Shown in pieces: positions 3,233 to 48,106 of a stretch of DNA of 64,000 nt (its first letter is position 1; the number at the start of each line of letters is the position of its first letter). A program made the translations under genes and the position numbers. The DNA lies in assembly GCA_041736875.1 (NCBI GenBank), contig JBGSSV010000180.1:44851-108850 (forward strand), read 5' to 3'. The stretch comes from Chthoniobacterales bacterium (GTDB lineage: Bacteria > Verrucomicrobiota > Verrucomicrobiia > Chthoniobacterales > JACTMZ01). The notes under the pieces were generated by a model that saw nothing but the letters and a program-made list of their open reading frames with translations, was not told where the DNA came from and searched no databases.

Positions 3233-4546
3233 ATGACACCTATTGTTGAAGTCAAAGGACTCTCCAAGCGCTACAGGCTCGGCGTGTTCAACGCGCGGAC
3301 GCTGCGCGAAGAGGCGGAGGTGTTTCTTGCGCGATTCTCGCGCAAGAAGGGAGATGGAAGTTCGAAGATCGGATATGGGTCCCTATCTACCAACTCCAAA
3401 CTCTATTCTCCTTCGTCAACTCCCGCTGACGACTTCTGGGCGTTGCGCGACGTTTCCTTCGACGTCCACCCCGGCGAGGTCATCGGCATCATCGGACGCA
3501 ACGGGGCGGGGAAGAGCACGTTGTTGAAAATTTTGAGCCGCATCACGGAGCCGACGTCAGGCGAGGCGCGGATTCGCGGGCGGGTGGCGTCGCTGCTTGA
3601 GGTGGGGACGGGATTCCATCCGGAGTTGTCGGGCCGGGAAAACATCTTCCTCAACGGGGCGATCCTCGGCATGACCAAGGCCGAGATCCGGAGGAAATTC
3701 GACGAGATCGTGGCTTTTGCGGAGATCGAGAAGTTCATCGATACGCCGGTGAAGCGTTACAGCTCGGGCATGTATGTGCGTTTGGCCTTTTCCGTTGCTG
3801 CGCATTTGGAGCCAGAAATTCTTATCATAGACGAAGTTCTTGCTGTCGGGGATGCTGGCTTCCAGAAGAAATGTCTTGGGAAAATGAAAGAGGTAAGTGG
3901 AAAGGGGGGGCGCACGGTGTTGTTCGTTAGTCACAACATGACGGCAGTGCGCTCACTTTGTTCTCGAGCTATTCTGTTGCGATCCGGGCACCTGGTGGCA
4001 GACGACGCGATCGAGTCCGTTGTTCACACCTATGAGAACACCGAGCTCAAAGCATCGCTTCATCGCAAATGGGACGAACCTCCGAGGGAAGAACACTCGG
4101 GGGTGCGCGGTGGGATCTATTTGAAAGAGGCCAAGGTGTTGGCCGGCAGCAGGCAAGCAGAAGCCATCCGGGTGAACGACACGTTCGAATTGGCATTCTG
4201 TGTGAGCAGTAATCGTCGCGCTAACATTGCTCTCACTCCTCATTACCTAGGTCCCTCCGGGGAAACGCTCTTTGCGGCACCTTCGTCGGCAATAGCGCTC
4301 AAACCGGGTGACACTTGGTATATCTGCCGTATACCCGGTGATCTTCTCAATGACGGGATCTACTCGGTGCGCCTGCTTGTCGTGGAGGAAGGCCCTCAGG
4401 TGTTGCAGATCGTCAATGATGCGCTGGTCTTCGAGGTTCACGATCTTCAACGTGAAGGTGCTTGGCTTGGCAAGTGGCCTGGGGTGATTCGTCCGAAGTT
4501 CGACTGGCGATTTGAATCAGTGCTAAAGGAGCGAATCTTGGCATGA
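3233..4546 (+). CDS. wzt: Polysaccharide ABC exporter ATP-binding protein with C-terminal glycan-binding domain (Wzt)
   Basis: Walker A GRNGAGKST, signature YSSGMYVRLAF and Walker B ILIIDEVLAVGD. A C-terminal extension of about 170 aa resembles the Wzt_C beta-sandwich. Confidence 0.9.
   Translation: MTPIVEVKGLSKRYRLGVFNARTLREEAEVFLARFSRKKGDGSSKIGYGSLSTNSKLYSPSSTPADDFWALRDVSFDVHPGEVIGIIGRNGAGKSTLLKILSRITEPTSGEARIRGRVASLLEVGTGFHPELSGRENIFLNGAILGMTKAEIRRKFDEIVAFAEIEKFIDTPVKRYSSGMYVRLAFSVAAHLEPEILIIDEVLAVGDAGFQKKCLGKMKEVSGKGGRTVLFVSHNMTAVRSLCSRAILLRSGHLVADDAIESVVHTYENTELKASLHRKWDEPPREEHSGVRGGIYLKEAKVLAGSRQAEAIRVNDTFELAFCVSSNRRANIALTPHYLGPSGETLFAAPSSAIALKPGDTWYICRIPGDLLNDGIYSVRLLVVEEGPQVLQIVNDALVFEVHDLQREGAWLGKWPGVIRPKFDWRFESVLKERILA
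3350..3426 (+). repeat. Degenerate heptamer tandem tract inside wzt (in frame)
   Basis: Read in one 7-nt register: ggagatg gaagttc gaagatc ggatatg ... aactcca aactcta ttctcct tcgtcaa ctcccgc. Confidence 0.6.
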
Positions 4547-5661
4547 AGACATTTGTTGAAGCCTACGTGCAAGTGCTCGTTGATGCGATCGGGGCGGACT
4601 TCGCCGACAATTACGATGGTGATCGTTTCGGTCCGGAGAAGAGGAGCCCGTATGGCCCCAAAACAATCCTGAGAAGTTGTTGCGCGATGTTCGGGCTCAC
4701 TTCTGTCGGTGCAGCGCGGCAGACAGTGAATTCCGGACTTCGGTTTGTCGAGCCGCACCGCGCCGACTTGGAGTGGCTTTACGGCAACTTGGCTGACGAG
4801 GAGTCCAAGCGGTGGCTGGTCAGCCTCATGGCATTTCGAGCCCTGCGGCACCGGAAGATTCGATTGCCAACCAACACGCTTGCATACTGGGAGGGCGTGC
4901 GGAAGGCCAAAGCTCTGGCGAGGAGTGAAGAATCCATCGATCTCGGGTTTCTCGGCTTCAGAGCCCGTAAACTGAATCTGTCGCCCGTCGGGTATCCGAT
5001 CGAGTTGTTTTTTGTTCCATTCGCTGTGCATATCCAGTTTGTTATGCAACCCTACCGCTGCGTCAGTGGGTCAACATTGATCGAAGCACAGGAGGGGGAT
5101 GTTGTTCTGGATTGCGGCGGTTGCTATGGGGACACGGCTTTGTATTTCGCGCACAAAGTCGGCCCGCAGGGCAAAGTTCTCAGCTTCGAATTCGTGCCAG
5201 CCAACCTCGATATCTGGCGCCAGAACGTCGCCCTCAATCCCAGGCTAGAGCCGGTCATACGATTGGTTGAGGCTGCGGTTAGCGACCGGTCGGGCGATGA
5301 ACTCTTCCTCGAGGGCAGTGGCCCGGGAACAAGGGTCGTGCAAGAGCCCACCAACAGCGGTGCACCAACTGTCCGGACAGCGGCGATCGACGAAGTTGTC
5401 GCACGGGAGGGTCTGTCGCGGGTAGATTTCATCAAGATGGACATCGAGGGCTCTGAGTTGTCCGCCTTGCGAGGGGCTGAACAGGCCTTGAGGCGTTTTC
5501 GCCCCAAGCTCGCCATCAGCGTTTACCACCAACTTGAGGACTTCTGGGCTGTTCCCCAATACCTTGAGGGTCTTGGTCTGGACTACCGTTTTTATCTCCG
5601 CCATTTCACCATCCACGCCGAGGAGACAGTTCTTTTCGCTGTGCCTCCGCCGGTCCGGTAG
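4543..5661 (+). CDS. FkbM-family methyltransferase with N-terminal extension of about 170 aa
   Basis: VLDCGGCYGDTALYFA and IKMDIEGSELSAL. ATGA overlap with the wzt stop. Confidence 0.85.
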   Translation: MKTFVEAYVQVLVDAIGADFADNYDGDRFGPEKRSPYGPKTILRSCCAMFGLTSVGAARQTVNSGLRFVEPHRADLEWLYGNLADEESKRWLVSLMAFRALRHRKIRLPTNTLAYWEGVRKAKALARSEESIDLGFLGFRARKLNLSPVGYPIELFFVPFAVHIQFVMQPYRCVSGSTLIEAQEGDVVLDCGGCYGDTALYFAHKVGPQGKVLSFEFVPANLDIWRQNVALNPRLEPVIRLVEAAVSDRSGDELFLEGSGPGTRVVQEPTNSGAPTVRTAAIDEVVAREGLSRVDFIKMDIEGSELSALRGAEQALRRFRPKLAISVYHQLEDFWAVPQYLEGLGLDYRFYLRHFTIHAEETVLFAVPPPVR

Positions 5662-8911: not shown

Positions 8912-9600
8912 AACTGGGGCTCATCTCCGACATCCACGGAAACTACGAGGCGCTCAAAGCCGTCCTTGGGGAACTGGATCGCCGTGGGGTTGATGAAATC
9001 CTCTGCTTGGGCGATGTCGTGGGCTACTACCCGCAGATCAATGAGTGCTGCGAGGAGCTGCGCGCCAGGAAGGTGTCGTCGCTCATGGGTAATCATGACT
9101 GGTATTTGTGCGGGGGCGGATTTTGTCCGCGTTCGCAGAGCGTCAACGACTGTCTGGCTTACCAACGTCAGCTCATCACTGCGGAGAATCTCAACTGGCT
9201 CGGGGGGCTGCGGACGCATGCGCGCGTGGGGGATCTGAAGCTGGTTCATGGTGGGTGGTGCGACCCCCTTGACGAGTATCTGACCGAACCGTCTGAGGAG
9301 TATTTTACCCGCGTCGTCGGGAGTATCTTTGCCTCGGGACACACGCACATGCAGGCTTTGCATCGCTGGAAGGGGAAGACTTACTGCAATCCTGGATCCG
9401 TCGGCCAACCGCGAGACGGCGACCCGCGGGCGGCCTTTGCCATCTTTGACGGGGAATTTCATCTCCTCCGCGTCGCTTACGAAATGGAACCCGTATTCGG
9501 CCTCATGGCTACCCTTGGTTTCAGCGACTACTACTACGGTTGTCTGAAGACCGGAGCACGCAATCTCTGCCGTCTGCCGGCTTCGACTCAAGCGCGATGA
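8908..9600 (+). CDS. Metallophosphoesterase (YfcE/MJ0936-like)
   Basis: Motifs DIHGN, GDVVGY, GNHD and GHTH in canonical order. Confidence 0.85.
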   Translation: MKLGLISDIHGNYEALKAVLGELDRRGVDEILCLGDVVGYYPQINECCEELRARKVSSLMGNHDWYLCGGGFCPRSQSVNDCLAYQRQLITAENLNWLGGLRTHARVGDLKLVHGGWCDPLDEYLTEPSEEYFTRVVGSIFASGHTHMQALHRWKGKTYCNPGSVGQPRDGDPRAAFAIFDGEFHLLRVAYEMEPVFGLMATLGFSDYYYGCLKTGARNLCRLPASTQAR

Positions 9601-16813: not shown

Positions 16814-16950
16814 GGAGAGGGAAGGTGGGAAGGGTGGGATGAAAATGCTGCAATGCTGAAAAGCTGAAAACTGGGAAGTTGTCGGAAAGGGCCGCGATTC
16901 AGCCGTCGGAAGTCGTTTTCGGAACTTTTCTCTGGTTTTTCGCCTTTTTG
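16814..16950 (+). repeat. Intergenic purine-rich block plus octamer-type tandem tract
   Basis: ggagagggaaggtgggaagggtggg, then gatgaaaa tgctgcaa tgctgaaaa gctgaaaa ctgggaag, then gtcggaag tcgttttc. Confidence 0.55.
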
Positions 16951-17543: not shown

Positions 17544-17690
17544 AGTTGGCTGAAGTCTGTAGGCTGTCTTCAGCGAAACCACCGACAGAGCCGAAAGCCA
17601 ACATCCAGCAAGTAGCCAAGTGGCTGATTCCTTTTGAGCTGGCCGCTGTCTGCTGCCAACCGAAGACTGCCAACTGACGACTCAATCTTC

Positions 17691-19193: not shown

Positions 19194-20018
19194 ATGTTGG
19201 ATGTCTTTGTCTATGTCGCCACGGGCGAAGTGTATGCTGCCGAGGCCTGCCGGTCGGCGGATTCCCTGCGCTCGGCTCATCCCACGGCCAAGATCGTTTT
19301 GCTGACCGACAGCCCGCCAGCAGGAAGCGGAGCGTTCAACGAGGTTCTTCGTCCGCAGGGACCGATCGAGCACACTCCGATCGACAAACTGCTCGCATAT
19401 GAAGTGGCGGATGATCGGGTGGTGTTTCTGGACACGGACACGCATGTGACGGATGATCTGAGCCCGATGTTCGAGGTGCTTGAGAGGTTTGATATCGCGG
19501 TTCTTCAGGATGTGAACCGCGGGTGGAACTACCAGTTGCCGAGGGTGCCGCTGACCTTTTCCGAGTTCAACACGGGCGTCATTGCTTTTCGGAGGAATGC
19601 AAGAGTCGAGCGGTTTTTCCAGGACTGGAGAGAAGAATACAACAGACTGCGCAAAGATCCGGGTTTTGTGTCCGATCAGCCCTCCTTTCGCAGCACGCTT
19701 TACAAGTCGGATTTGCGCGTGGCACCACTGCCTTCGGAGTTTCATTTTCTGGCAAACTATCCGAATGCGGCGCTGTGGAAAGCGCGGTTGCTCCACGGCC
19801 GTGGGGACTATGTGGAGATGGAGAGGCTGGCCAATGAGACGCTTGGGTTGCGGGCGTATGTTCCGGAGTTGGGCGTCATCACGAAGTTCCAAGGGCGGAA
19901 GAAGCTGGTGGGTGAGGTCTTCCGGTTCGTGCGCCGTGCCCTGCGGCTCACGATTGCCGGATCGAAACATCCGCAGGCGAAGCACCCGACAGGATGGAAC
20001 AGGAATGAGCCGGGGTGA
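19194..20018 (+). CDS. Putative GT-A-fold nucleotide-sugar transferase (GT8-like), unclassified
   Basis: FLDTDTHV (DxD) and FNTGVIAFRR. The family assignment is tentative. Confidence 0.45.
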   Translation: MLDVFVYVATGEVYAAEACRSADSLRSAHPTAKIVLLTDSPPAGSGAFNEVLRPQGPIEHTPIDKLLAYEVADDRVVFLDTDTHVTDDLSPMFEVLERFDIAVLQDVNRGWNYQLPRVPLTFSEFNTGVIAFRRNARVERFFQDWREEYNRLRKDPGFVSDQPSFRSTLYKSDLRVAPLPSEFHFLANYPNAALWKARLLHGRGDYVEMERLANETLGLRAYVPELGVITKFQGRKKLVGEVFRFVRRALRLTIAGSKHPQAKHPTGWNRNEPG

Positions 20019-20242
20019 GGGAGGGGCCGGGGAGGTGGGAACGTGGGAAGCAGCCGAAGGCTGCGGACAACGGATAACGAGACCATAGACCGGGGAGTGG
20101 GAGGGCAGTGAGAAAGTGGGAAGGTATGAAAGGGAGCGGAGGGGCATGAGGCGAGAGGCAAGGGGGGAGGGGCGAAGAGAAACGGGGGCACGGTGTGAGA
20201 CGCGCGAAATGACGGGGAAATGGAAATCGTGATCACTGGAGT
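20019..20242 (+). repeat. Intergenic G/A-rich degenerate short-period repeat block
   Basis: ggaggtg ggaacgt gggaagc ... gacaacg gataacg agaccat agaccgg ... gtgagaa agtggga aggtatg aaaggga. No convincing ORF. Confidence 0.55.
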
Positions 20243-21116: not shown

Positions 21117-22181
21117 ATGCGCGATGTAACTCTGCAACTAAATCTATGTGCCGGGGATGCCGACTATGCGGGGAAATCAGTTCCGGCATTGGTGGGGGCG
21201 GTCAAGCCGGCGGTCGATGAGGTGCTGATTGTGCTCGACTGCTGCATGCCGCAACCCTCACCGGTGTTTCGAGCTAGAGATCGCTTCAGCGCGGTGGATT
21301 TCGGCGAACGATTGGCGCGGGTGCAGGAACTTTGCGGAAACTGGAAAGCGCAGGGCTTGGTCGATCGTGTCGAGTTGCTCGAACCCGGCAGCGAGCGGAT
21401 CCGCTCGCTCAACCGAAAATACACCGGGCACGACACGCCTTGGACTCATGATCACCTTGGCCACGCCTTCACAGCGTATTTTGCCGCGTGGGAGTGGCCA
21501 TCCACGCGCTATGTGCTTCATTGCGATGCGGACATTTTCCTTCACGACCGCACGCACAATGCCTGGATCGCGGCTGCCGTGAGGTTTCTTGAGGAACATG
21601 TGGATGTCGTCGCGGTTTGTCCCCGCATCGCCCCGCCCATCAAGGAGTCAGGGCAGATGATCCATGTGGGTGCCAGGGATAGCGGTTGGCTGCCGACATG
21701 GTCGCTGGACAAAGCCGAGGGCGGATGGTCGAGCAATTGGCTGAGCACGCGGATGCACTTTATCGATCGTCAGCGCTTGGGGCCCCTGCTTCCCCTGCAG
21801 CCGACCTGCGGACGAACTAGCTATGCGGCGGCGCGGCGAATCAATGAGTTGCTGGCACCGCTCTTCGACCGGCGTAATTGGTTGGCCAAGCAAAGCCCGG
21901 ATCGCATTCCGGAACTCATGCATCGGATCTGCCGGAAGATTGCGGCGCACGTGATCCCGCCGTATCCGCTTCCGCCGGAGGTGCTCGTCTTTGAGCACTG
22001 TGCGGCCGAAGCCAAACGGTTCTTTTACTTCGACCGCGACGACGTGTGGTATGTGCATCCGGAAACGAAGCCGGCGGCTTTTCTCGACGTGCTGGATAAT
22101 TTGCTGGTCCGCGTGCCTTGCGGAGACTTTCCCGAAGCCCAGCGAGGACTGACAGGGATTCAATTTGAGAGTTGGCGATGA
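21117..22181 (+). CDS. Hypothetical protein, possibly a GT-A-like transferase
   Basis: Long ORF in the locus orientation. A DxD-like HCDADIF is the only motif seen, and no family was recognised. Confidence 0.4.
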   Translation: MRDVTLQLNLCAGDADYAGKSVPALVGAVKPAVDEVLIVLDCCMPQPSPVFRARDRFSAVDFGERLARVQELCGNWKAQGLVDRVELLEPGSERIRSLNRKYTGHDTPWTHDHLGHAFTAYFAAWEWPSTRYVLHCDADIFLHDRTHNAWIAAAVRFLEEHVDVVAVCPRIAPPIKESGQMIHVGARDSGWLPTWSLDKAEGGWSSNWLSTRMHFIDRQRLGPLLPLQPTCGRTSYAAARRINELLAPLFDRRNWLAKQSPDRIPELMHRICRKIAAHVIPPYPLPPEVLVFEHCAAEAKRFFYFDRDDVWYVHPETKPAAFLDVLDNLLVRVPCGDFPEAQRGLTGIQFESWR

Positions 22182-22284
22182 GTGCGGAGGCAGGAGCAGA
22201 GAAGGGCGAGCCACGGACTAACACGGATAACTGCTTGGATAAATGTTCGTGCGCACACGCACGAAGAAACATAAGCGGCAAAAC

Positions 22285-23604
22285 ATGACTGACGAATCGG
22301 CACAGCTGACCTTGAGCGTTGTCATTTCGACGCACAATCCGCGGATGGATTACCTCGCGCGGGTTCTTGACGCCTTGCGGCAGCAGACGTTGGCCAAAGA
22401 CGTCTGGGAGCTTGTCATTATTGACAATGGCTCCCGCGAGGCTTTGGCAGTAGCCAGTAGTCAGTCGTCAGGAGGCAGTGAAGGCAATGGTGGACGCAAA
22501 GAGGCGCAAGAGGGCGGAGGACAGAAGTCGGAGGTCGGAAGTCGGAGGACCAGCGGAGTTGGGGACGGAGGGCCGGGGACAAGTGAAAGCGAACTGGAGG
22601 CTGACCGGCTGGAATATGTTTCGAATTCTAAGGGCCAAGGGGACTTAAAACTTACAAACTTAAAACCTAAAACTACCGAGCTTAAGCTCGGTTGGCATCC
22701 TCATGCGCGCGTGGTGCGGGAGGAAAGTCTTGGCCTCACGTTTGCGCGGTTGCGGGGGTTTGCCGAGGCGCGGGGAGAACTGATCGTGATGGTGGATGAT
22801 GACAATGTGCTCGCGCCGGATTATCTCGCAACGGCCGCGCGCATCGCAGAGGAGCAACCGCCACTCGGAGCGTTCGGGGGAAAATGTTTGCCGGAATTCG
22901 AGGTTGAGCCGCCGGATTGGATCGAAGATGTGAGGAAGGCGTTGGGGCTTCGCGATCGCGGCGAACGCGAGGAGTTTTTCCCGGAAGCTGTGGTCGCCGA
23001 GGGTTGGCAGTCTTCAGTTGGCAGTTTTCAGAGTCGAGAAAACGGACGATTGACTGCTGACCACGGCCGACCGGCTACCGCCAACCGTCAACTTCGCGCG
23101 GCGCGCGACTTTCCTGACTGTGCGCCGATCGGGGCGGGGATGGTGTTACGAACCGCCGCCGCGGCTGCTTATGCGGAGTGCATCAAGCAGCGGACAGCGG
23201 GACCACAGGACAACGGGACAATTACAGACCGAAAGGGCGACAGTTTGGCTTCAGGGGGGGATAATGACATTTGCCTGACGGTGATCGAGGAGGGTTGGCA
23301 GGTCGGGTATTTTCCTCAGCTCCAGCTTACTCACCTGATCCCAGAGGGAAGGCTGACTGCCGCTTACCACAAGCGCGCGGCTTGCGAATCCATGCAGAGC
23401 TTTGTTTTGATGCTGGATCAGCACGGTGTCTGGCCGTGGCCGACGATCCAGAGGTGGACGCTCCCGCTGCGAATCGCGCGTGAATATTTCCGGCACAAGG
23501 CGTGGCGCGGTGATTTGGAGTCCATCCGTTGGTGGGGAAGCGTGGGTCAATGCCTCGGACGATCGAAGTTGCGGGGCAGTCGCCACTCAAGTGACCAGCC
23601 ATGA
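22285..23604 (+). CDS. Glycosyltransferase family 2 carrying large low-complexity insertions
   Basis: LSVVISTHNPRMDYLARVLDALRQQT..ELVIIDNGS, then an insert of about 80 aa, then GLTFARLRGFAEARGELIVMVDDDNV. Confidence 0.7.
   Translation: MTDESAQLTLSVVISTHNPRMDYLARVLDALRQQTLAKDVWELVIIDNGSREALAVASSQSSGGSEGNGGRKEAQEGGGQKSEVGSRRTSGVGDGGPGTSESELEADRLEYVSNSKGQGDLKLTNLKPKTTELKLGWHPHARVVREESLGLTFARLRGFAEARGELIVMVDDDNVLAPDYLATAARIAEEQPPLGAFGGKCLPEFEVEPPDWIEDVRKALGLRDRGEREEFFPEAVVAEGWQSSVGSFQSRENGRLTADHGRPATANRQLRAARDFPDCAPIGAGMVLRTAAAAAYAECIKQRTAGPQDNGTITDRKGDSLASGGDNDICLTVIEEGWQVGYFPQLQLTHLIPEGRLTAAYHKRAACESMQSFVLMLDQHGVWPWPTIQRWTLPLRIAREYFRHKAWRGDLESIRWWGSVGQCLGRSKLRGSRHSSDQP
22447..22690 (+). repeat. 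Composite array of degenerate heptamer/octamer tandem repeats, in frame inside a GT2 gene
   Basis: gcagtag ccagtag tcagtcg tcaggag gcagtga ... gaagtcg gaggtcg gaagtcg gaggacc ... cttaaaa cttacaaa cttaaaac ctaaaac. Confidence 0.7.
23002..23092 (+). repeat. Degenerate heptamer tract, in frame in the same GT2 gene
   Basis: ggttggc agtcttc agttggc agttttc agagtcg ... tgactgc tgaccac ggccgac cggctac cgccaac cgtcaac. Confidence 0.65.
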
Positions 23605-24614
23605 GCATCGCCAGTGAACTGAAGCATCGCTTTTACCGTCTTCCGATGCGGGGGGTGCGCAAGTTGCGGGGTTGGGGAGTGCGGGGGTACTTGCTGGAAA
23701 GCAAATGGCGGGGGGAGATGGAGGCCGCTGCCTACTCGTTAGGCAGCGGAGTTGGCAGTGTTCAGTCTTCAGTATTCAGCAACGAACCGCGAGCCTACGG
23801 TCACTCGCCACTCGCCACTGTCCACACGTCACCTGAGACCGGCTGGAAGCCGGTCGAGATCCACATGTTGGTGGGGAGGGGCTTTTGGTTCATGGCGGCG
23901 TTTGCGGTGGCGAGTTTGAGGCGACAACTCAGCCGCCCGGTGCACGCTTGGTTTTACGATGACGGCTCGCTGGAGGAAAAGCAGGCGCAGGCGTTGGTTC
24001 GCATCGCAGATCGCGCGGATATCGTCAGCGCTGCGGAGCAAGAGGCGCAAGTAGAGCGGTGGCTGCCTGAGGCGAAGTTCCCGCACATCCGTCGCCGTTT
24101 GCTCGACTATCCGAATTTGAAGAAGCTCACGAGCCCGCATCTCGGATCGAGAGGCGCGAAGCTTGTGCTCGATGCCGATGTCCTGTTCTTCGCCGAGCCG
24201 AGGGAATTGACACGCTGGTTGGAGGATTCCTCAACAATCCTCTGCGCCACGGATTGCGCGGAGAGCTACGGATATTCGCGGGCGCTGCTGGAGGAAGTCG
24301 CCGGTGCGCGAATGCCCCGCGACATCAACGTCGGCGTCACGGGTCTGGTGTCGGAGGAGATCGACTGGAATCTCCTCGAGTCCTGGTGTCATGGGCTGAT
24401 TACCAGAGCCGGCATGACCTACTATCTCGAGCAGGCCTTGGTGGCCATGCTTTGCGCGCGCCGACCCTTCACCCAGTTGCCACTGGATGCCTACATCACG
24501 GGGCCGAGTTGCCGACAAGTCGCCGAGGGCTGCGGAGTGATGCAGCACTACGTCGAGCACTCCAAAAAGTCTTATCTCGAAAGGGCGTGGCGACCTTTTG
24601 CCCTCCGGGCCTGA
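23601..24614 (+). CDS. Putative GT-A-fold transferase, unclassified
   Basis: WFYDDGS, LVLDADVLFF and INVGVTG. ATGA overlap upstream. Family tentative. Confidence 0.45.
   Translation: MSIASELKHRFYRLPMRGVRKLRGWGVRGYLLESKWRGEMEAAAYSLGSGVGSVQSSVFSNEPRAYGHSPLATVHTSPETGWKPVEIHMLVGRGFWFMAAFAVASLRRQLSRPVHAWFYDDGSLEEKQAQALVRIADRADIVSAAEQEAQVERWLPEAKFPHIRRRLLDYPNLKKLTSPHLGSRGAKLVLDADVLFFAEPRELTRWLEDSSTILCATDCAESYGYSRALLEEVAGARMPRDINVGVTGLVSEEIDWNLLESWCHGLITRAGMTYYLEQALVAMLCARRPFTQLPLDAYITGPSCRQVAEGCGVMQHYVEHSKKSYLERAWRPFALRA
23743..23833 (+). repeat. Degenerate heptamer tract, in frame in the next gene, sharing the AGTTGGC/AGTnTTC units
   Basis: gcagcgg agttggc agtgttc agtcttc agtattc agcaacg ... ggtcact cgccact cgccact gtccaca cgtcacc. 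Confidence 0.65.
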
Positions 24615-29202: not shown

Positions 29203-30477
29203 ATGAATTCTCCGCCAGTGGGCCGAGTTGTTAGGGCGGGGTTGCGCGTGCTGTTGGTTCACCCCGGCACACAGCACGCGCCGCGCCTTGCTCGTCAGTT
29301 AGAAGGGCGTGGAGTCCTTTTCAGATTTTGGACTGGGGTCGCCTCGCCGAAGAGAGTAGGCGATTTGGGACACTCACATTTTGATCCATTCAACAAAGAA
29401 AAGCCGTGGCGGGTTGTTGATATTCCGGAAGATAAGCTACGGACGATTCCATGGGTGGAGATATTGGCGTTGGTGTTAGCGCGGTTTCCGGTGAACAGGG
29501 AGCGGCTTTGGCATTGGCGAAACGGACTCTTTCAAAGACTGGTTCCACAAAGCGAGATTGAGGCGGCTGATGTGGTGATCGGATTCGATACCGCGGCTTG
29601 GAGCGTGGGCCGAAGGGCGAAGCGGGCCGGCAAGAAGTTCGTGCTCGACCAGAGCGTGGCTCATCCGCTTTCCCGTGCTGGTGCAGTGCGCACAACCGGA
29701 GGTGACAAAGATTTGTGGCCTGAGGCTTTTCTGCCCCGTCTGGGAATCGTGCGGGAAGCCGAAATGGAGGAACACCGAATGGCAGATCTTGTTGTGGTGG
29801 CAAGTTCCTTCACAAAGCAAACGCTCGTCGAGAACGGCGTGGCTGAAGGCAAAGTCCGTGTTTTGCCCTACGGGGTTGGAGAGGAGTGGCTTGCTGCTGG
29901 TAGAGGGCGCTTCGCGGCGCCGGCCCCAGGAAATAGGCCTTTCCGGTTTCTTTACGCAGGCTATCTCACCAAGCGGAAGGGGCTGACAACCCTGCTTGAG
30001 GCTTGGGAAGAGATGGGCCTTGCCGATGCCGAACTGCACTTGATTGGCGGTGGTGAGTTGGACCGGGCTTGTCCATCCAATGTCGTGCTGCTCGGGCAGA
30101 CCCCGCGGGAGAAACTGCTCCGGGAAATGTCGGAAACGGACGCCTTCGTGTTTCCCAGCCTGTTCGAGGGCTTCGGCTTGGTCATTCTGGAAGCCATGGC
30201 CACAGGGCTCCCGGTCATCACCACGCCACACACAGCCGGACCCGACTTGATTGAGCCCGGCAAGGAGGGGCTCATTGTCCCGGCGGCCGATGTGCGCGCC
30301 CTCGGCCACGCGATGATGACTCTGCGCGGTGACCCGGAACGTGCGCGCGAGATGGGGCGAGCGGCCCATGCCACAGCGCTGTGCTATACATGGGACCGCT
30401 ACGGCGAAGGCTATGTCGGTTTGCTGGGCGAGCTTTATGCAGAGGGTGGTCCAACGGAGGCGCCGCGGCACTGTTGA
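29203..30477 (+). CDS. Glycosyltransferase family 4
   Basis: FVFPSLFEGFGLVILEAMATGLPVITTPHTAGPDLI. Confidence 0.85.
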   Translation: MNSPPVGRVVRAGLRVLLVHPGTQHAPRLARQLEGRGVLFRFWTGVASPKRVGDLGHSHFDPFNKEKPWRVVDIPEDKLRTIPWVEILALVLARFPVNRERLWHWRNGLFQRLVPQSEIEAADVVIGFDTAAWSVGRRAKRAGKKFVLDQSVAHPLSRAGAVRTTGGDKDLWPEAFLPRLGIVREAEMEEHRMADLVVVASSFTKQTLVENGVAEGKVRVLPYGVGEEWLAAGRGRFAAPAPGNRPFRFLYAGYLTKRKGLTTLLEAWEEMGLADAELHLIGGGELDRACPSNVVLLGQTPREKLLREMSETDAFVFPSLFEGFGLVILEAMATGLPVITTPHTAGPDLIEPGKEGLIVPAADVRALGHAMMTLRGDPERAREMGRAAHATALCYTWDRYGEGYVGLLGELYAEGGPTEAPRHC

Positions 30478-30490
30478 TCTAGCCCAAGAA

Positions 30491-31840
30491 TTGCTCCCCG
30501 TGCTTGTTGTCCTGACCTCCCATCCGATCCAGTATCAGGCTCCCCTTTGGCGGGCGCTTGCCGGGGAATTTGGCCAAGGCCGCGGGCGGAAGGAAGCTCA
30601 GGATAGAAGACGAGAGCGCAGATTCGAGGTTTGGTTTTTGACGGATCAGGGGGTGCGGCGGACGGAGGATAAGGACTTCGGGAAGGCATTTGCCTGGGAT
30701 GTGGATTTGCTCTCGGGGTATCCGCACCGGTTCTTGGCACTGAGAGGGCCGTGGAATTTGCGGACATTCAACGGTCTTCCCCTAGCGCAGCCGGTCGGGC
30801 AATCACTGAGGGAGGCCGGCGCGACGGCGCTGTGGGTGGAAGGCTGGAGGTTCAAGCCGTTCTGGGAGGCGGTGTCTGAAGCGAAAAAGATGGGGATTCC
30901 TATTTTTCTGCGTGGCGAGACTACTGACAAGATCACGGAGAGGGGTGGGTTGTTCGGGCTTGTTCGCAGATTCGCGCTGCACCGGTTGTTTGCGAAGGTG
31001 GACCACTTCCTCGCCATCGGACAGGCGAGCAAGCGGTTCTACCTGAAACACGGGGTGCCCTGGCGGAAGTTGATTGATGCGCCTTATGGGGTGGATAACG
31101 AATTTTTCCGGACTGAGGTTGGGAAACTTTGTGGCAGTTGGCAAGGGGCTCGGGGCGAAATGGGCGCGCATTTTGACAATTTGACCGAGGGGCAGAGGGC
31201 GATTCGGGAGAAGTGGAATATTCCGTTGGATGCGAAGGTGGTGATGTTTTGCGGGAAGTTTGTCCGTAAGAAGAGGCCGATGGATGTCGTGCTCGCTGCG
31301 CGAGCACATTTTGAGAGGGGTAAAGTGGGCGATGCGACAGGCGAAGAGCGGCTGCCGGAGAAGTGGCACCTGCTGTTCGTTGGGAGCGGTGAACTAGGTA
31401 GCGAACTGCGGGCGGTTTGTGACGTGCGGTTCGATGCCGAAGCTCAAAATCACAAAATCCCCAGAACTCAAAATCTTGGTGCCCCTCCGGCTTCCTTTGC
31501 GGGTTTTTTGAACCAGTCGGAGATCGCCAAAGCCTATGCGGCCGCGGACGTGATGGTGTTGCCGAGCGAGGCATGGGAGACGTGGGGCTTGGTTGTCAAT
31601 GAGGCGACCGCGGCTGGCGTGCCTACCGTTGTCAGCGAACAGTGCGGCTGCGCGGAGGACTTCGCCGCAAAGAACCCGTTCACCCGTGTTTTCCCCACGG
31701 GGAATGTTCGGGCGCTCGCGGCGGCCTGCAACGAACTGCTCTCCTTGGCCGTCGAGCGCAGAGAGGTCTCCCTTGCGGCGGACACCTTCGACCCGCAGAT
31801 CACCGCGAAGTCGGTGCGCGCGGTGCTGATGCGTGCGTGA
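30491..31840 (+). CDS. Glycosyltransferase family 4 with short low-complexity insertions
   Basis: LVVLTSHPIQYQAPLWRAL and VLPSEAWETWGLVVNEATAAGVPTVVS. The start is uncertain (TTG 30491 or GTG 30500). ATG 30329 would overlap the previous gene by 149 nt. Confidence 0.75.
   Translation: MLPVLVVLTSHPIQYQAPLWRALAGEFGQGRGRKEAQDRRRERRFEVWFLTDQGVRRTEDKDFGKAFAWDVDLLSGYPHRFLALRGPWNLRTFNGLPLAQPVGQSLREAGATALWVEGWRFKPFWEAVSEAKKMGIPIFLRGETTDKITERGGLFGLVRRFALHRLFAKVDHFLAIGQASKRFYLKHGVPWRKLIDAPYGVDNEFFRTEVGKLCGSWQGARGEMGAHFDNLTEGQRAIREKWNIPLDAKVVMFCGKFVRKKRPMDVVLAARAHFERGKVGDATGEERLPEKWHLLFVGSGELGSELRAVCDVRFDAEAQNHKIPRTQNLGAPPASFAGFLNQSEIAKAYAAADVMVLPSEAWETWGLVVNEATAAGVPTVVSEQCGCAEDFAAKNPFTRVFPTGNVRALAAACNELLSLAVERREVSLAADTFDPQITAKSVRAVLMRA
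31443..31477 (+). repeat. Octamer-type tandem tract, in frame inside a GT4 gene
   Basis: ctcaaaat cacaaaat ccccagaa ctcaaaat ctt. Confidence 0.5.
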
Positions 31841-44043: not shown

Positions 44044-45842
44044 GAGAGCCTGCAGCTCAGCGACTCGCGGGATTTCTCTTCGGCGGGTGGTTGCTGCTTC
44101 ACACAGCTGGCTTTCCGGTTCTCTGGAGCGTGCTGTCCGCCGGCGTTCTTTGCGCGGGTTTTGTCCTACGATGGCTGCAGGTTCGGACGTTTCGCCCGAT
44201 CACCTGGCTGCTCGTGGGCTTCACCGGGGTGATGCCCTTTCTCGACCGCGGTCCGCTGCTTCCCACCATGGGGGCAGCGGCCTTGTGGCTGGCCTGTGTC
44301 CTGCTGCTGTCGCCCCTGACTCCCCGCCGCGGCCTGTGGCTGCTCCTCGCGTGCTTGGTCATGCTCGCGTCGCTCGCCTTGGATCCGGAGGCGGAGTTTT
44401 CCGCTCTGGCTATCATCATTGATGTGGCTTTCGTTCTTCTCCTCGCCCAGCAGGTTCATGCGCCCGCCGGGGCAGGGCGGGGGATCCGCGAAATTCTGCT
44501 GCGCTCCGTCCTGCTCGCTGTGCCGATTGCATCGCTTGTCACGGGTGTCTTCTGGGTGTTTCCCACGCTCTCGCAGCAGACGGATGAGGCCCTGAGCGGC
44601 TTTTCCGGGAGTCTCAATCCCGGTGATGTCTCGGTCATGCGTCTGAGCCGCCGCCCTGCTTTCGTCGCCACTTTTTCGCTGTCCAGCCCGGTTCCATCCG
44701 CCGCGAATCTTTATTGGCGGGGGGCGGTCTTGGTCGACAACGGTGGCCTCAATTGGGCGCAGGGTGGACGTCCGGCGCCCGGCACGAAGAACGCGGTGCC
44801 CGAGGATCTTCAAGTCTGGCGCTACTCCCTCGCTTCACAAAACGGTGCGCCCGTCGTGCCGCTCGACGTGCCTCTCACCGAGATCTCGTCAGATGTTTGG
44901 CTCCCCGACGTCGTTTCCTCGGCCCAGCCCGCGGACGACCCGCCTGATCCGGTGCTAGCCGCCGGCCGGCTGGACGTTCCGGCTGCCGTGCGTTCCGATC
45001 CGCGCCTGTCGGCCCTGGTCGCCGAGTTGATTTCGCCGGACCGTTCGGTGCCGGAAAATCTGCAGGCCCTCGGGGATTTCCTCCGCCGTGGAGATTTTGT
45101 CTATTCTCTGCGGCCCGGACGGCTGCCTTCCGCGGACGTGGCCGGGTTTCTGCTCGATCGTCGCAAGGGGTTTTGTGAGCACTACGCGGCGGCGTGCGCG
45201 AACATCCTCCGCCTCGCAGGCATCCCGACGCGCATCATCACCGGCTACCGGGGTGGTCGGTGGAACCCGTGGCTTGGGACGATCACGGTGCAGGAGGCGG
45301 ACGGCCATGCTTGGGTGGAGGCATGGGATGCCGCATCGGCTCACTGGCTCCGCTTCGATCCCACGGAGTTCGTCGCGCCGGAGTTGACGCGCCAGATTGA
45401 AGGTCTGCGGGATGACCAAAACTGGGCGTGGCATCAGCGGGTCTCGGTCTTCGTTGCGAGCCTCCTGCCGTCCGCGCAAATCCGCCTCGAGCGCCTGGCC
45501 TCGGCCAAGCTCCTGCCAATTCTGGGCGGTCTGGCTTTGCTTCTTGCCGGTGGCTGGCTGTGGCTCTGCCGACGGGGACGGGATCCGGTGGACGCCGTGT
45601 TGGACCGCCTGGAGAAATACGCGAAACGAGCCAACACTCCGCGTCTCCCCGGGGAGACGCCGCTCGCGTGGATGGCCCGCCTCCAGGCGGGGGCGGGGGC
45701 AGCCGGCGACGGTCTGCGCGAGATCGCCTCCCTCTATGAGCAATGCGTTTATGCCCGGTCCGGGCCAGACGCGGCAGGGCAAATGCTCTCGCTTACCGCG
45801 CGGTGGACGTCCGGCCCGGCTCAGCGGTCGGGAGGGGCGTGA
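44040..45842 (+). CDS. Membrane transglutaminase-like protein (DUF3488 + transglutaminase core, TgpA-like architecture)
   Basis: N-terminal multi-TM region, then GFCEHYAAACANILRLAGIPTRIITGY (Cys) and DGHAWVEAWD (His/Asp). ATGA overlap. Confidence 0.85.
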   Translation: MREPAAQRLAGFLFGGWLLLHTAGFPVLWSVLSAGVLCAGFVLRWLQVRTFRPITWLLVGFTGVMPFLDRGPLLPTMGAAALWLACVLLLSPLTPRRGLWLLLACLVMLASLALDPEAEFSALAIIIDVAFVLLLAQQVHAPAGAGRGIREILLRSVLLAVPIASLVTGVFWVFPTLSQQTDEALSGFSGSLNPGDVSVMRLSRRPAFVATFSLSSPVPSAANLYWRGAVLVDNGGLNWAQGGRPAPGTKNAVPEDLQVWRYSLASQNGAPVVPLDVPLTEISSDVWLPDVVSSAQPADDPPDPVLAAGRLDVPAAVRSDPRLSALVAELISPDRSVPENLQALGDFLRRGDFVYSLRPGRLPSADVAGFLLDRRKGFCEHYAAACANILRLAGIPTRIITGYRGGRWNPWLGTITVQEADGHAWVEAWDAASAHWLRFDPTEFVAPELTRQIEGLRDDQNWAWHQRVSVFVASLLPSAQIRLERLASAKLLPILGGLALLLAGGWLWLCRRGRDPVDAVLDRLEKYAKRANTPRLPGETPLAWMARLQAGAGAAGDGLREIASLYEQCVYARSGPDAAGQMLSLTARWTSGPAQRSGGA

Positions 45843-47211
45843 ACGTCGCCTGCGGGGTGATTCTGGTCACCGATGCCACCGTTGGATGGGATTTGATCAG
45901 ATTGGCGAATTTGTGCGCGGAAGGCTTGAGTTCGCGGGTCTTGGTCTTCGGATTCATGTGCGACAGACCGAAGGTTGCCTCGAATCCGTAGTGCCATTCG
46001 TAGTTGTCGGCCAGCGACCAAGCGAAGTAGCCCTGCACGTCGTAGCCGTCACGGATGGCGCGACCGACTGCGGCGATGTGGTTGCGCATATACCATTCTC
46101 GCTTGGCGTCGTCGCGCGTGGCTATCCCGTTCTCGGTGATCATCATCGGCTTGCCGTAGCGCGTGGCCACCCGCTTGATTTCCTTGTAGAGCCCTTCGGG
46201 GTCGATGCGCCAACCCATCATGGTGAACTTCTTGCCCCGCATTGACGGACCAGCCAGGAGGGAAATCGGGCCCGGGGCCTGCGAGTAGTAGTAATTGATC
46301 CCGAGGATGTCACAGACGTCATAGATGCGGTCGAGGTGATCGGTGTTGCCGTGGATCATCGTGTTGTAGATGAGGCCGCCCGGATCGAGAGGGGCACGCT
46401 CCCACCACGGCAGAGCCTCGACGCTGACAATCTCTGCGCCGGGGTTCAGTTTTTTCACGATGCCGGCTGCGTCGCGGAACATACCGGTGCTGGCATCGAT
46501 GGCCTTCCAATAATGCCCGAAAGCCATGGTCATGGCCGGCGGCCACTGCGCCACGATGTAGGCCGTGGTGATCTGGCCGTTCGGCTCGTTCTGCGGGGCG
46601 TAAAATTTCACGTCAGACCCCATCGCGCGCACCATTTTGTTCACGTAAGCCTTCCAGCGCTCGCGCACGAGCGGATGGAGCCAATTCGAGTTTCCCGGGG
46701 TTTCCTTGTCGTAGAGCCAGTCCGGAAAGGTGAAGTGCCACAGGCAGACGACGGGCTCAATCCCGAGGGCCTTCAGTTCACGGGCCATGCGCACGTAGCC
46801 GCGAATGGCTTCCTCGTTGTATTCGCCGGGCTTCGGTTCGACCCGCGCCCACTCAATGCTGAAGCGGTAGTGGGTTGGTCGGATTTTCTTCAGCGCCTCC
46901 AAATCCCTCTCGAAGCGCGTCCACGAGTAGAGTGCGTTCCCGCGGGGCGGAGCCTTTTTCTGCGCCACGAGCACGTCCCAATCGGTCGAGAAAAAGTCCG
47001 GCTGACTCGGCACGACGGCCGGGTCCTCGTATTGGTAGCTCGCGGTCGCGATACCCCAGACGAACTTCCTCGGCGGATCGGCCGGAGGGATAGCCGCGAC
47101 CTTCGGGGCGGGGTCGAAGCGCCCGAGGGGATTGATCGGGTTGACGCAGCCGATGAGAAGGAGGCTTGTTGCCACGGCGGCGAGCGGCAGGGAGATGCGG
47201 GTTGGGCTCAT
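45793..47211 (-). CDS. Glycoside hydrolase family 1 beta-glucosidase, lipoprotein
   Basis: YAPQNEPNG (acid/base) and MITENGIATRDD (nucleophile). The N-terminus MSPTRISLPLAAVATSLLLIGC has a lipobox. The upstream part of track ORF ..47529 was rejected. Confidence 0.9.
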   Translation of the reverse strand: MSPTRISLPLAAVATSLLLIGCVNPINPLGRFDPAPKVAAIPPADPPRKFVWGIATASYQYEDPAVVPSQPDFFSTDWDVLVAQKKAPPRGNALYSWTRFERDLEALKKIRPTHYRFSIEWARVEPKPGEYNEEAIRGYVRMARELKALGIEPVVCLWHFTFPDWLYDKETPGNSNWLHPLVRERWKAYVNKMVRAMGSDVKFYAPQNEPNGQITTAYIVAQWPPAMTMAFGHYWKAIDASTGMFRDAAGIVKKLNPGAEIVSVEALPWWERAPLDPGGLIYNTMIHGNTDHLDRIYDVCDILGINYYYSQAPGPISLLAGPSMRGKKFTMMGWRIDPEGLYKEIKRVATRYGKPMMITENGIATRDDAKREWYMRNHIAAVGRAIRDGYDVQGYFAWSLADNYEWHYGFEATFGLSHMNPKTKTRELKPSAHKFANLIKSHPTVASVTRITPQATFTPLPTAEPGRTSTAR

Positions 47212-47224
47212 GAAATCAGAGGGT

Positions 47225-48106
47225 TCAACTGTCCTTCGGTTTCGTGACCGCGAGCAGGGGTGCAACGTAGTCACGGATGAAAGCCATTTTGACGTTGTCA
47301 AAGTGGCGACCGTAGTTGCCATCCCTTTCCTCCCGCTTCCGCCATTTGACCTTAACGATCTTCTCGGCGTAAAGCGCACGCGTGCGGGCGCTGGCGTTGG
47401 CCGGCAGGACAAACCCGTTGATACCCGCCCCGGGGTCGTGGAACTTGCGGTCCGTCGTGCCCGAGAGGGGCATGAGATCGCCGACCATGCGGTCGCGATG
47501 CGAAGTGAAGACGTAGAGTTTGCCGTCAACGTGCTGGAGTGCCTTGGTCAGGTCGTAGTTCTCGCTCAGCGAACATCCGAGCAGCACAACGTTCCTGACC
47601 CTCACTCCCGGTGGGAGGTCTTCGAGGGCAAAGACCGCTTCGGCCGTGCCGGCGGAGAAGCCGAGCAGGTTGATAGGAGCCGCGGAGAAGGCACGCTGGC
47701 GTTTGGTAATCTCGGCCGCAAGCACCTTCGCTTTCTTGCGCTTGTATTCAAGGCTCGCGACTTGATCGAGGAACAAGCCATCGCCGGTCTCCCAGGTAAA
47801 CAATTCGCCGGCCCCCGTGTAGCCGGCCTCGATCAGGCCTTGCCGCACTCCGCCGGCCCAGTTGTTGCGCGCCGTCCCACCGCCGGCGCCGTCGACATAG
47901 TAGAGGTAGCCGTTCTGCATGCGGGCCTCACGGCCGGGCAGGGGCTGGGGGAGGCCAGCGTGGTTTACGCATCCGGCGAGAGCCAGTCCGAGGGCGAGAC
48001 AAAGAAGGCGCAGGCGAAAAGCGGGAAGCGGAGTCGTTGGATCGGTTGACACGGGTGGCGCTAAGGTGAGTGAAACCCTGCCAAAAGACCCAATCGAACG
48101 GAACAT
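47225..48106 (-). CDS. Alpha/beta-hydrolase-like lipoprotein, function unknown
   Basis: Lipobox LALGLALAGC and a nucleophile-elbow-like LLGFSAGTA. Confidence 0.5.
   Translation of the reverse strand: MFRSIGSFGRVSLTLAPPVSTDPTTPLPAFRLRLLCLALGLALAGCVNHAGLPQPLPGREARMQNGYLYYVDGAGGGTARNNWAGGVRQGLIEAGYTGAGELFTWETGDGLFLDQVASLEYKRKKAKVLAAEITKRQRAFSAAPINLLGFSAGTAEAVFALEDLPPGVRVRNVVLLGCSLSENYDLTKALQHVDGKLYVFTSHRDRMVGDLMPLSGTTDRKFHDPGAGINGFVLPANASARTRALYAEKIVKVKWRKREERDGNYGRHFDNVKMAFIRDYVAPLLAVTKPKDS

Follow-up and report, generated by a model that had tools for sequence, protein, structure and literature searches.

How does a long run of short-period repeats come to lie, in frame, inside the catalytic domain of a glycosyltransferase? 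The question is raised by a 64,000-nucleotide stretch of DNA from a Chthoniobacterales bacterium (contig JBGSSV010000180.1; the whole stretch is called the window here), in which a tract at positions 22447-22690 (+) interrupts a gene for a glycosyltransferase of family 2 (GT2). The DNA originates from hot-spring metagenomes, and its nearest named relatives are Verrucomicrobia and Chthoniobacterales metagenome-assembled genomes (MAGs). With a probability of about 0.72, we read the tract as a translated low-complexity loop insertion with little or no function of its own, derived from arrays of heptanucleotide and some octanucleotide units that resemble the short tandemly repeated repetitive (STRR) sequences of cyanobacteria.

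The host gene (22285-23604, +) encodes a protein of 439 residues, or of 453 residues if an upstream ATG at 22243 is used. It belongs to a long same-strand polysaccharide cluster containing Wzm/Wzt-type ATP-binding cassette (ABC) export, RmlC, a DesI-like aminotransferase, many GT2 and GT4 enzymes and methyltransferases, followed by an exosortase. The open reading frame (ORF) matched the GT2 profile PF00535 with an E value of 1.8e-15 (57.7 bits against a cut-off of 23.3), while the nearest NCBIfam model was HpsE, with a score under its cut-off. The AlphaFold2 model had a predicted local distance difference test (pLDDT) score above 90 in the core and a predicted template-modelling score (pTM) of 0.77, and its best fold matches in Foldseek were the GT-A enzymes TarP, RmlT, TarS and SpsA. 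Both marks of a GT2 enzyme were thus found, the family profile and a GT-A Rossmann-like fold with a DXD motif. This motif, VDDDN (V170-D171-D172-D173-N174), was invariant across 27 GT2 homologues, together with 54 other positions. Matches to distant GT2 homologues (Mucilaginibacter, Opitutaceae, cyanobacteria) spanned only about 300 residues.

A preliminary description of this DNA had placed the tract in frame within the catalytic domain and had called its product a hydrophilic linker; the in-frame position and the hydrophilic character were borne out. The tract, insert 1, comprises 81 in-frame codons without a stop (residues 55-135), between strands beta2 (IIDNGS) and beta3 (ARVVREE), and it splits the PF00535 match in two; its peptide is hydrophilic, with a mean hydropathy of -1.05. 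Structure prediction placed it in a low-confidence loop between these two strands. The pLDDT was below 50 for residues 67-127 and 239-257 and 52-67 for residues of about 301-320, and these three regions, all low-confidence loops, correspond to three repeat-derived inserts in the same gene. In the AlphaFold2 model, the inserts are therefore predicted to be disordered.

We then considered what insert 1 is made of. Tandem Repeats Finder detected three arrays in it, covering about 103 of its 244 nt: array A (22448-22479, +; CAGTNNN x4.6, consensus CAGTAGT), encoding AVASSQSSGGS; array B (22510-22548, +; GAGGTCG/GAAGTCG x5.6), encoding GGQKSEVGSRR; and array C (22643-22674, +; ACTTAAA x4.4 with one 8-nt unit), encoding DLKLTNLKPKT. 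Over the whole insert, the fraction of matches at lag 7 was 0.43, compared to 0.275 in shuffled sequences (z 5.5), a value that none of 2000 shuffles reached. Lag 8 was weakly raised (z 2.2), and lag 3, the usual coding signal, gave a z of -0.06, i.e. no codon periodicity. The expectation of a significant periodicity of 7-8 nt was therefore confirmed at lag 7. The picture of successive short-period arrays held for the CAGTAGT, GAGGTCG and ACTTAAA arrays and failed for the 93-nt centre of the insert (22549-22642, +), which is weakly periodic and is common to the related locus L083. Insert 1 contains no perfectly repeated heptamer, even in two copies (no run of at least 7 consecutive lag-7 matches), and no perfect heptamer run anywhere in the window exceeds 2.6 copies (23802-23819). 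The count of lag-7 regions in the window is 8, compared to 0.5 for codon-block shuffles. Head-to-tail 7-nt units above chance periodicity, one of the features that define STRR-like sequences and long simple sequence repeats (SSRs), are thus present. In insert 1, purines make up 66% of the coding strand, which contains GGAGG motifs of the Shine-Dalgarno type. It was also observed that the purine-rich arrays at 22510-22548 hold repeated GGAGG/AGGAG, and that the same families occur directly upstream of start codons in spacers (22182-22240 in the window; 9436-9470 in the related locus L084).

Only one tract had been described before. That tract is real, yet it is one of three in this gene, with more nearby. 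Insert 2 (22996-23095, +) consists of GTTGGCAGTCTTCA x2.1 at 23003-23031, followed by CTGACCA-type heptamers at 23051-23095; its lag-7 z is 5.7, it encodes GWQSSVGSFQ...RLTADHGRPATANRQ, and it folds into a weak hairpin (z -1.6). Insert 3 contains an octamer array, GGACAACA x3.8 (23192-23221, +; Tandem Repeats Finder), which encodes TAGPQDNGT, and L084 has a related array, GGACCACG, at the same site. A 22-mer of insert 2, GTTGGCAGTCTTCAGTTGGCAG (23003-23024, +), recurs in inverted orientation as GTTGGCAGTCTTCGGTTGGCAG at 17653-17674 (-), with 1 mismatch and 0 occurrences expected by chance. This second copy is part of an intergenic array (17638-17682, -) just upstream of the rmlC-like gene.

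Comparison with homologues showed that all three sites can be empty and vary widely in length. In the insert-free alleles of loci L003 and L004, the protein reads VVDNSSREKLEGRVDIGWHP where the window protein has 75 more residues, which is the net gain at site 1. Site lengths were compared in 104 GT2 homologues, a set derived from gene calls, which under-sample frameshifted alleles. Site 1 ranged from 27 to 113 residues with 34 distinct lengths, site 2 from 31 to 101 residues with 35 and site 3 from 38 to 113 residues with 26, so that the extra residues per site went from none up to 70-86. Empty sites numbered 27, 18 and 23 at sites 1, 2 and 3, respectively. The finding is thus one of insert-free alleles and hypervariable lengths, not of an identical-length conserved segment, the outcome that the preliminary description had named as fatal to its own proposal. 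Testing the lengths for multiples of 7 residues gave no clean signal, the uneven residue classes being confounded by shared ancestry. In a neighbour-joining tree of the conserved core, which is qualitative and without bootstrap, the insert types (empty, LKLTNLK, LPSH, KDQE, SSQSSG) were interleaved and not clade-specific.

The protein encoded by the next gene behaves in the same way. Its homologues have one hypervariable position, whose length ranges between about 6 and about 80 residues, at which the same peptide families are used (SEVGSQRSEVGG, IRLRDEETKRLE, GVGSVQSS) and at which the Haloferula and Verrucomicrobiales homologues are empty. In the window, this gene (ORF 23601-24614, no family match) carries a tract at 23739-23860 (+), with CAGTATT x3.4 at 23756-23779, CACTCGC x2.6 at 23802-23819 and a lag-7 z of 6.6.

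The arrays draw on a small number of families that are dispersed over many loci. Period-7 arrays occurred at 3-10 per 10 kb in close verrucomicrobial loci (L003, L004, L005, L083, L084), compared to 0.35 in 77 loci of other taxa, among which a Spartobacteria MAG (L014) and Leptolyngbya (L048) were exceptions. Families recurring across related loci were AGTTGGC/TTGGCAG, GAGGTCG, AAAACTT, ACGGCAG, AGGCGAG, CAGGAGT and AAAGCGG, and the same families were found at many unlinked loci, being shared by the window, L003, L004, L083, L084, L086, L087 and L088. The GAGGTCG family occupies site 1 in the window and in L083, site 2 in L086 and L087, and site 3 in L086; since it lies at different sites in different homologues, vertical inheritance of a single insertion cannot explain the pattern. 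On other contigs of the same metagenomes, the irregular ACTTAAA array was found twice, gap-free with 1-2 mismatches, and the GAGGTCG array with 3-5 mismatches, in each case between unrelated flanks. These results show that a few families of 7-8 nt units (CAGTNNN/TTGGCAG, GAGGTCG/GGAGTCA, ACTTAAA, AGGCGAG, ACGGCAG, AAAGCGG) are in use in the gene pool of polysaccharide clusters among Chthoniobacterales-like Verrucomicrobiota. They fill spacers and appear again in the GT-A enzyme, at three permissive loops, and in the protein next to it, at one loop. Perfect arrays of about four units occupy the same GT2 loops in relatives: (AGTTGGC)x4.3 in L004 (3493-3522), (GGAGCAT)x3.7 in L083 (10212-10237) and (AAAGCGG)x4.4 in L005 (3181-3211). 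They probably represent a young stage of the same process and could slip at a low rate. In the Leptolyngbya sp. BL-A-14 locus L048, we also noted the GGAGTCA/CAGGAGT family (1745-1779, 5157-5194, 5233-5263), in common with L084 (9436-9470) and with site 1 of L088, and an ACTCAAA array that resembles the ACTTAAA and CTCAAAAT arrays of the window.

Insert 1 is modular, and part of it has been exchanged laterally. From 22495 onward, 192 nt are common to L083 with 86.5% identity (13.5% of sites differ), with a dN of 0.152, a dS of 0.142 and 12, 7 and 7 differences at the three codon positions. The gene flanking this shared stretch has a dS of 1.35-1.76 and a dN of 0.29-0.40 between the window and L083. 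The shared stretch is thus younger than the split between the two genes by a factor of about ten, so that the insert must have passed laterally. The tract of high identity (22495-22680 in the window, 10244-10429 in L083) begins inside the insert, at an array boundary, and upstream of it the arrays of L083 are different and younger: (ACGGCAG) and the perfect (GGAGCAT) array. Other homologues carry other portions. At site 1, L087 has array A only, about 36 nt of array plus upstream flank having 1 mismatch to the window, and L084 has only the ACTTAAA-like end; in L088, a Chthoniobacterales MAG, the skeleton of insert 1 is complete except for 87 nt. Array C is nearly identical in L083 and L088. 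The GT2 gene of L088 (5001-6140) looks mosaic: over roughly the first 165 codons it resembles the window closely, reaching 87-97% nucleotide identity in the best 30-nt blocks (0.57-0.97 when all blocks are counted), and similarity is much lower in its C-terminal half. As L088 looks recombinant, recombination among homologues would be the simplest vehicle for the movement of inserts.

We examined how selection acts on the inserts and on the enzyme around them. Compared to L084, the syntenic ortholog, the ratio dN/dS was 0.136 in the GT2 core and 0.59 at the insert sites (alignable codons); in the neighbouring gene, the values were 0.12 in the core and 0.95 in the repeat tract. Taken together with the stretch common to L083, the inserts gave values of 0.6-1.07. 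These near-neutral values indicate that the insert peptide is barely constrained, and the strong purifying selection on the catalytic core suggests that the enzyme still works. The other five reading frames of insert 1 each contain stop codons, the frame of the gene alone being open. Because three heptamers make 21 nt, every offset of a unit is read as a codon, and units that contain a stop cannot be perfect inside the ORF. When arrays A and C were rebuilt as perfect consensus arrays, they acquired an in-frame TAG and TAA, respectively, and the real units depart from the consensus exactly at these would-be stops, by CAG TCG in array A and by an extra base and variant units in array C. In reverse orientation, GTTGGCAGTCTTCA and CAGTATT would carry TGA. 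Differences in length keep the frame: site 2 differs from L084 by exactly 7 residues, that is 21 nt or three units, and site 1 differs from L088 by 87 nt or 29 codons, the missing part spanning array B and some of the centre. These data show a survivorship filter, in which only orientations and unit variants that keep the frame and avoid stops remain.

The preliminary description had offered, as one of two options, a loop insertion that is tolerated and was left behind by the spread of repeats. Empty alleles, hypervariability, predicted disorder, near-neutral evolution and the presence of the same families in enzyme loops, in a neighbouring protein and in spacers all support this option. In the model that we propose, arrays would be seeded and would grow by slipped-strand mispairing, would be moved between sites and between homologues via recombination or template switching at the arrays, and would afterwards decay by point mutation. 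Colonisation of loops would be filtered by selection for an open frame, and what remains is a hydrophilic peptide predicted to be disordered.

Several observations weigh against this model. The steps of slippage and template switching are deduced from patterns in the sequence. At lag 7, the z of the centre of insert 1 is about 1.6-1.67, and a repeat origin is not demonstrable for these 93 nt. Compared to L084, the repeat tracts (the GT2 inserts and 23739-23860) differ at a proportion of sites (p) of 0.30-0.37, below the 0.53 of four-fold degenerate sites in the core; as they are less diverged than these sites, a purely neutral and purely vertical history is insufficient. Lateral exchange may explain this excess conservation, though not fully. 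Intergenic spacers could not be aligned with those of L084. The seven independent loci with arrays are all found within the first 32 kb of the window, the half formed by the polysaccharide cluster (GC 0.57-0.59), and the remaining 32 kb (GC 0.62-0.64) contained 0 arrays; the repeats may belong to a laterally exchanged cluster instead of to the whole genome. Finally, the 3' junction of insert 1 contains a perfect 16-nt palindrome, CCGAGCTTAAGCTCGG (22676-22691), whose right arm corresponds to the host L-G codons of LGWHP. This hairpin is kept in the window, L083 (10425-10440), L088 (5305-5320) and L084 (9814-9831), with two pairs changed on both sides, and is absent from insert-free alleles. 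On the minus strand, the T-rich complement of array C comes directly after the hairpin, which so resembles an intrinsic terminator, and the count of terminator-like sites was not above that in shuffles. It could be a hotspot of slippage or template switching, an antisense terminator or a product of chance.

Two other explanations were discarded. An intein, intron or bypass element was dropped in view of the low complexity of the tract, the lack of such motifs, the single open frame and the continuous length variation among homologues. An assembly artefact was ruled out by the agreement of independent assemblies from NCBI, Logan and JGI and by the related inserts present in homologues.

The second option of the preliminary description was a contingency (phase-variation) locus, active or recently decayed, in which heptamer slippage toggles the frame of the GT2 gene and varies the glycan structure. 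The unit of 7 nt, indivisible by 3 within an ORF, fits such a switch, as do the place of the tract inside a glycan-synthesis gene, about 160 nt from the start codon, and the perfect arrays of about four units in the same gene of L004, L083 and L005. There is also a precedent in NeuO, whose (AAGACTC)n tract slips, with the gene ON solely at values of n that are multiples of 3 (PMC13001214). However, the long uninterrupted perfect tract expected of a contingency locus was not found, the tract lacking even a perfect two-copy heptamer and the window reaching no more than 2.6 copies. Two of the three consensus units hold a stop trinucleotide, so that these arrays were never long and perfect in this frame, and their degeneracy makes a slippage switch unlikely in this genome. 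The main contig DNA was identical over the region in four samples (as assembled contigs, which hide rare variants), the protein was identical on six Logan contigs and one NCBI contig, and no length variant was present in its 90% cluster. A dedicated switch would also not lead one to expect tracts of the same type at three sites of the gene and in its neighbour. We therefore regard a switch as very unlikely; nothing in the data calls for a decayed one, and the imperfect heptamers, the stop-containing consensus units and the identical assembled copies give no support to an active one in this genome. That gain or loss of one unit would shift the frame of the enzyme, as had been pointed out, is right as arithmetic and is relevant only to the younger, perfect arrays of the three relatives. 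A discrete small mobile element, similar to a Rickettsia palindromic element (RPE) or a miniature inverted-repeat transposable element (MITE), inserted in frame and spread between genes, would account for the 192 nt that are 86.5% identical to L083 despite saturated flanks, for the same skeleton in L088, for the hairpin at one end and for short array segments in unrelated contigs; RPEs show that in-frame insertion of repeats into enzymes occurs (PMC10969869). The in-frame, permissive position is what such an element would occupy, but no conserved element at many loci was found. Neither the tract nor its non-repeat core had a second copy within the window, and an exact 21-mer of the core had a single match in the JGI metagenomes, in an unrelated coding context, which we attribute to chance. 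The insert peptide, a short and low-complexity query, returned no candidates as a protein query. Insert 1 lacks terminal inverted repeats and is not palindromic overall (DNA fold z +0.58), no target-site duplication was visible in comparison with empty alleles, and the modularity of the tract across L087, L088, L084 and L083 fits recombination among homologues better. A mobile element thus seems quite improbable.

The remaining explanations give the repeats a role. The tract might be kept for a function of its own, as an antisense terminator, as GGAGG-rich arrays that bind a protein or the ribosome, or as a flexible protein linker. The nucleotide conservation of the repeat tracts above synonymous sites, the hairpin kept in four homologues with paired changes and a terminator-like arrangement on the minus strand, and the purine-rich coding strand with its GGAGG motifs all argue for this possibility. 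On the other hand, 27 of 99 homologues have an empty site 1, which varies extremely among the others, no Rfam family was found at 21500-24500 (E <= 1), terminator-like sites were not above shuffles, and insert 1, taken in full, does not fold better than its shuffled versions. The dN/dS near 1 speaks against a constrained peptide, and lateral exchange can account for the excess nucleotide identity. We consider retention for such a function to be doubtful, at about the level of the mobile element. Alternatively, the arrays may form a sequence-specific, dispersed repeat system of this gene pool, perhaps related to cyanobacterial STRRs, which is copied by a dedicated mechanism or kept for a role at the nucleic-acid level (antisense termination, protein or ribosome binding), the enzyme loops serving as landing pads. 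If true, this would explain the conservation of the tracts above synonymous sites, the near base-for-base recurrence of irregular arrays and the co-variation in the hairpin. We think such a system unlikely, if slightly less so than the mobile element.

The translated loop insertion that we favour has parallels in several known systems. STRR units include CCCCAGT and others. The tract falls outside the strict definition of STRRs, which are confined to heterocystous cyanobacteria, specific units and intergenic positions: its units differ, and many of the arrays are intragenic. Low-complexity inserts, e.g. those of Plasmodium falciparum, and "cryptic simplicity" in general are cases in which simple sequence made by slippage is tolerated as disordered loops of fast-varying length in conserved enzymes. 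The Plasmodium-type inserts differ in being eukaryotic and mostly trinucleotide or homopolymer codon repeats, whereas the period is 7 nt here. Heptanucleotides are reported to be the most abundant class of long SSRs in many bacteria and are mostly intergenic, polymerase slippage with a footprint of about 7 nt having been proposed as their source (PMC4679880, PMC4692102), and heptamer SSRs are described as being under-represented inside coding sequences (PMC4692102). With these long SSRs (the LSSRs of Mrazek and co-workers) and with cyanobacterial STRRs, the arrays share tandem 7-nt units, few dispersed families, a richness in spacers and a mechanism of spread that is not known. They differ in belonging to a hot-spring Chthoniobacterales-like verrucomicrobium, in being mosaic and degenerate, and in being translated, for a large share, in gene loops. 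Four-unit heptamer elements (GGGACCG) of Geobacter metallireducens lie in genes as well as between them (PMC2700814), and in Beggiatoaceae and cyanobacteria, TAACTGA repeats occur in spacers together with other heptamers (PMC4679880). These two families resemble the present ones as short heptamer arrays at many loci; they are described as uniform arrays of about four units with a proposed regulatory role, and no turnover in protein loops or hypervariability among homologues is described for them.

NeuO, the phase-variable O-acetyltransferase of the Escherichia coli K1 capsule, likewise has a heptamer repeat within the coding sequence of a glycan-modifying enzyme, read in frame as 7-residue periods (PMC13001214). 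However, NeuO has 3-53 perfect units at its 5' end with measurable slippage, and the arrays described here are degenerate, internal, spread over three loops and free of length variants in assemblies. RPEs resemble the tract as repeated DNA that lies in frame, where the fold can accommodate it, in enzyme genes unrelated to one another (PMC10969869), but they are discrete palindromes that measure about 150 bp and encode a conserved peptide, whereas the window tract is a non-palindromic mosaic of whose core no further copies were found. Because defining features of each class were looked for and not found, the tract is not a strict STRR, NeuO-type or RPE member; the case works like a combination of heptanucleotide SSRs and RPEs. 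In a literature search, families of heptamer arrays that colonise several enzyme loops across a verrucomicrobial lineage were not found described, which is no proof of novelty.

The locus is a clean natural case of non-triplet simple-sequence DNA built into enzymes as disordered loops, with each 7-nt unit read in three frames. The signature of selection is visible in unit variants that avoid stops, in the stop-free orientation and in indels of three units. The range of STRR-like heptamers now includes a verrucomicrobial lineage, and the occurrence of the same families in spacers and in coding loops makes their origin and spread testable by comparative genomics. There are also consequences for annotation. 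Such tracts split domain matches, as in the GT2 Pfam match, which is in two pieces and is marked weak in the precomputed annotation; they inflate length variation and can pass for phase-variation switches.

Further repeat tracts were found elsewhere in the window. Near the start of the window, a gene for a Wzt/TagH-like ABC ATPase (3233-4546) carries an in-frame lag-7 tract at 3341-3381 (+), which encodes RKKGDGSSKIGYGS. Two spacers are made of similar material: an intergenic spacer at 16819-16870 (+) consists of arrays of 8-9 nt units (GGGAAGGGT, AAATGCTG), and a purine-rich intergenic spacer at 19990-20240 (+) contains lag-7 and lag-14 arrays at 20131-20186. Downstream of the host gene, a GT4 glycosyltransferase gene (30329-31840) has an in-frame octamer array of CTCAAAAT-like units at 31440-31476 (+). 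Further along the window, the ORF of a glycoside hydrolase of family 1 (GH1; 45793-47529, -; 578 residues) matches the Pfam GH1 profile in two stretches and exceeds the 453 positions of this profile by about 100 residues, and may hold another insertion.

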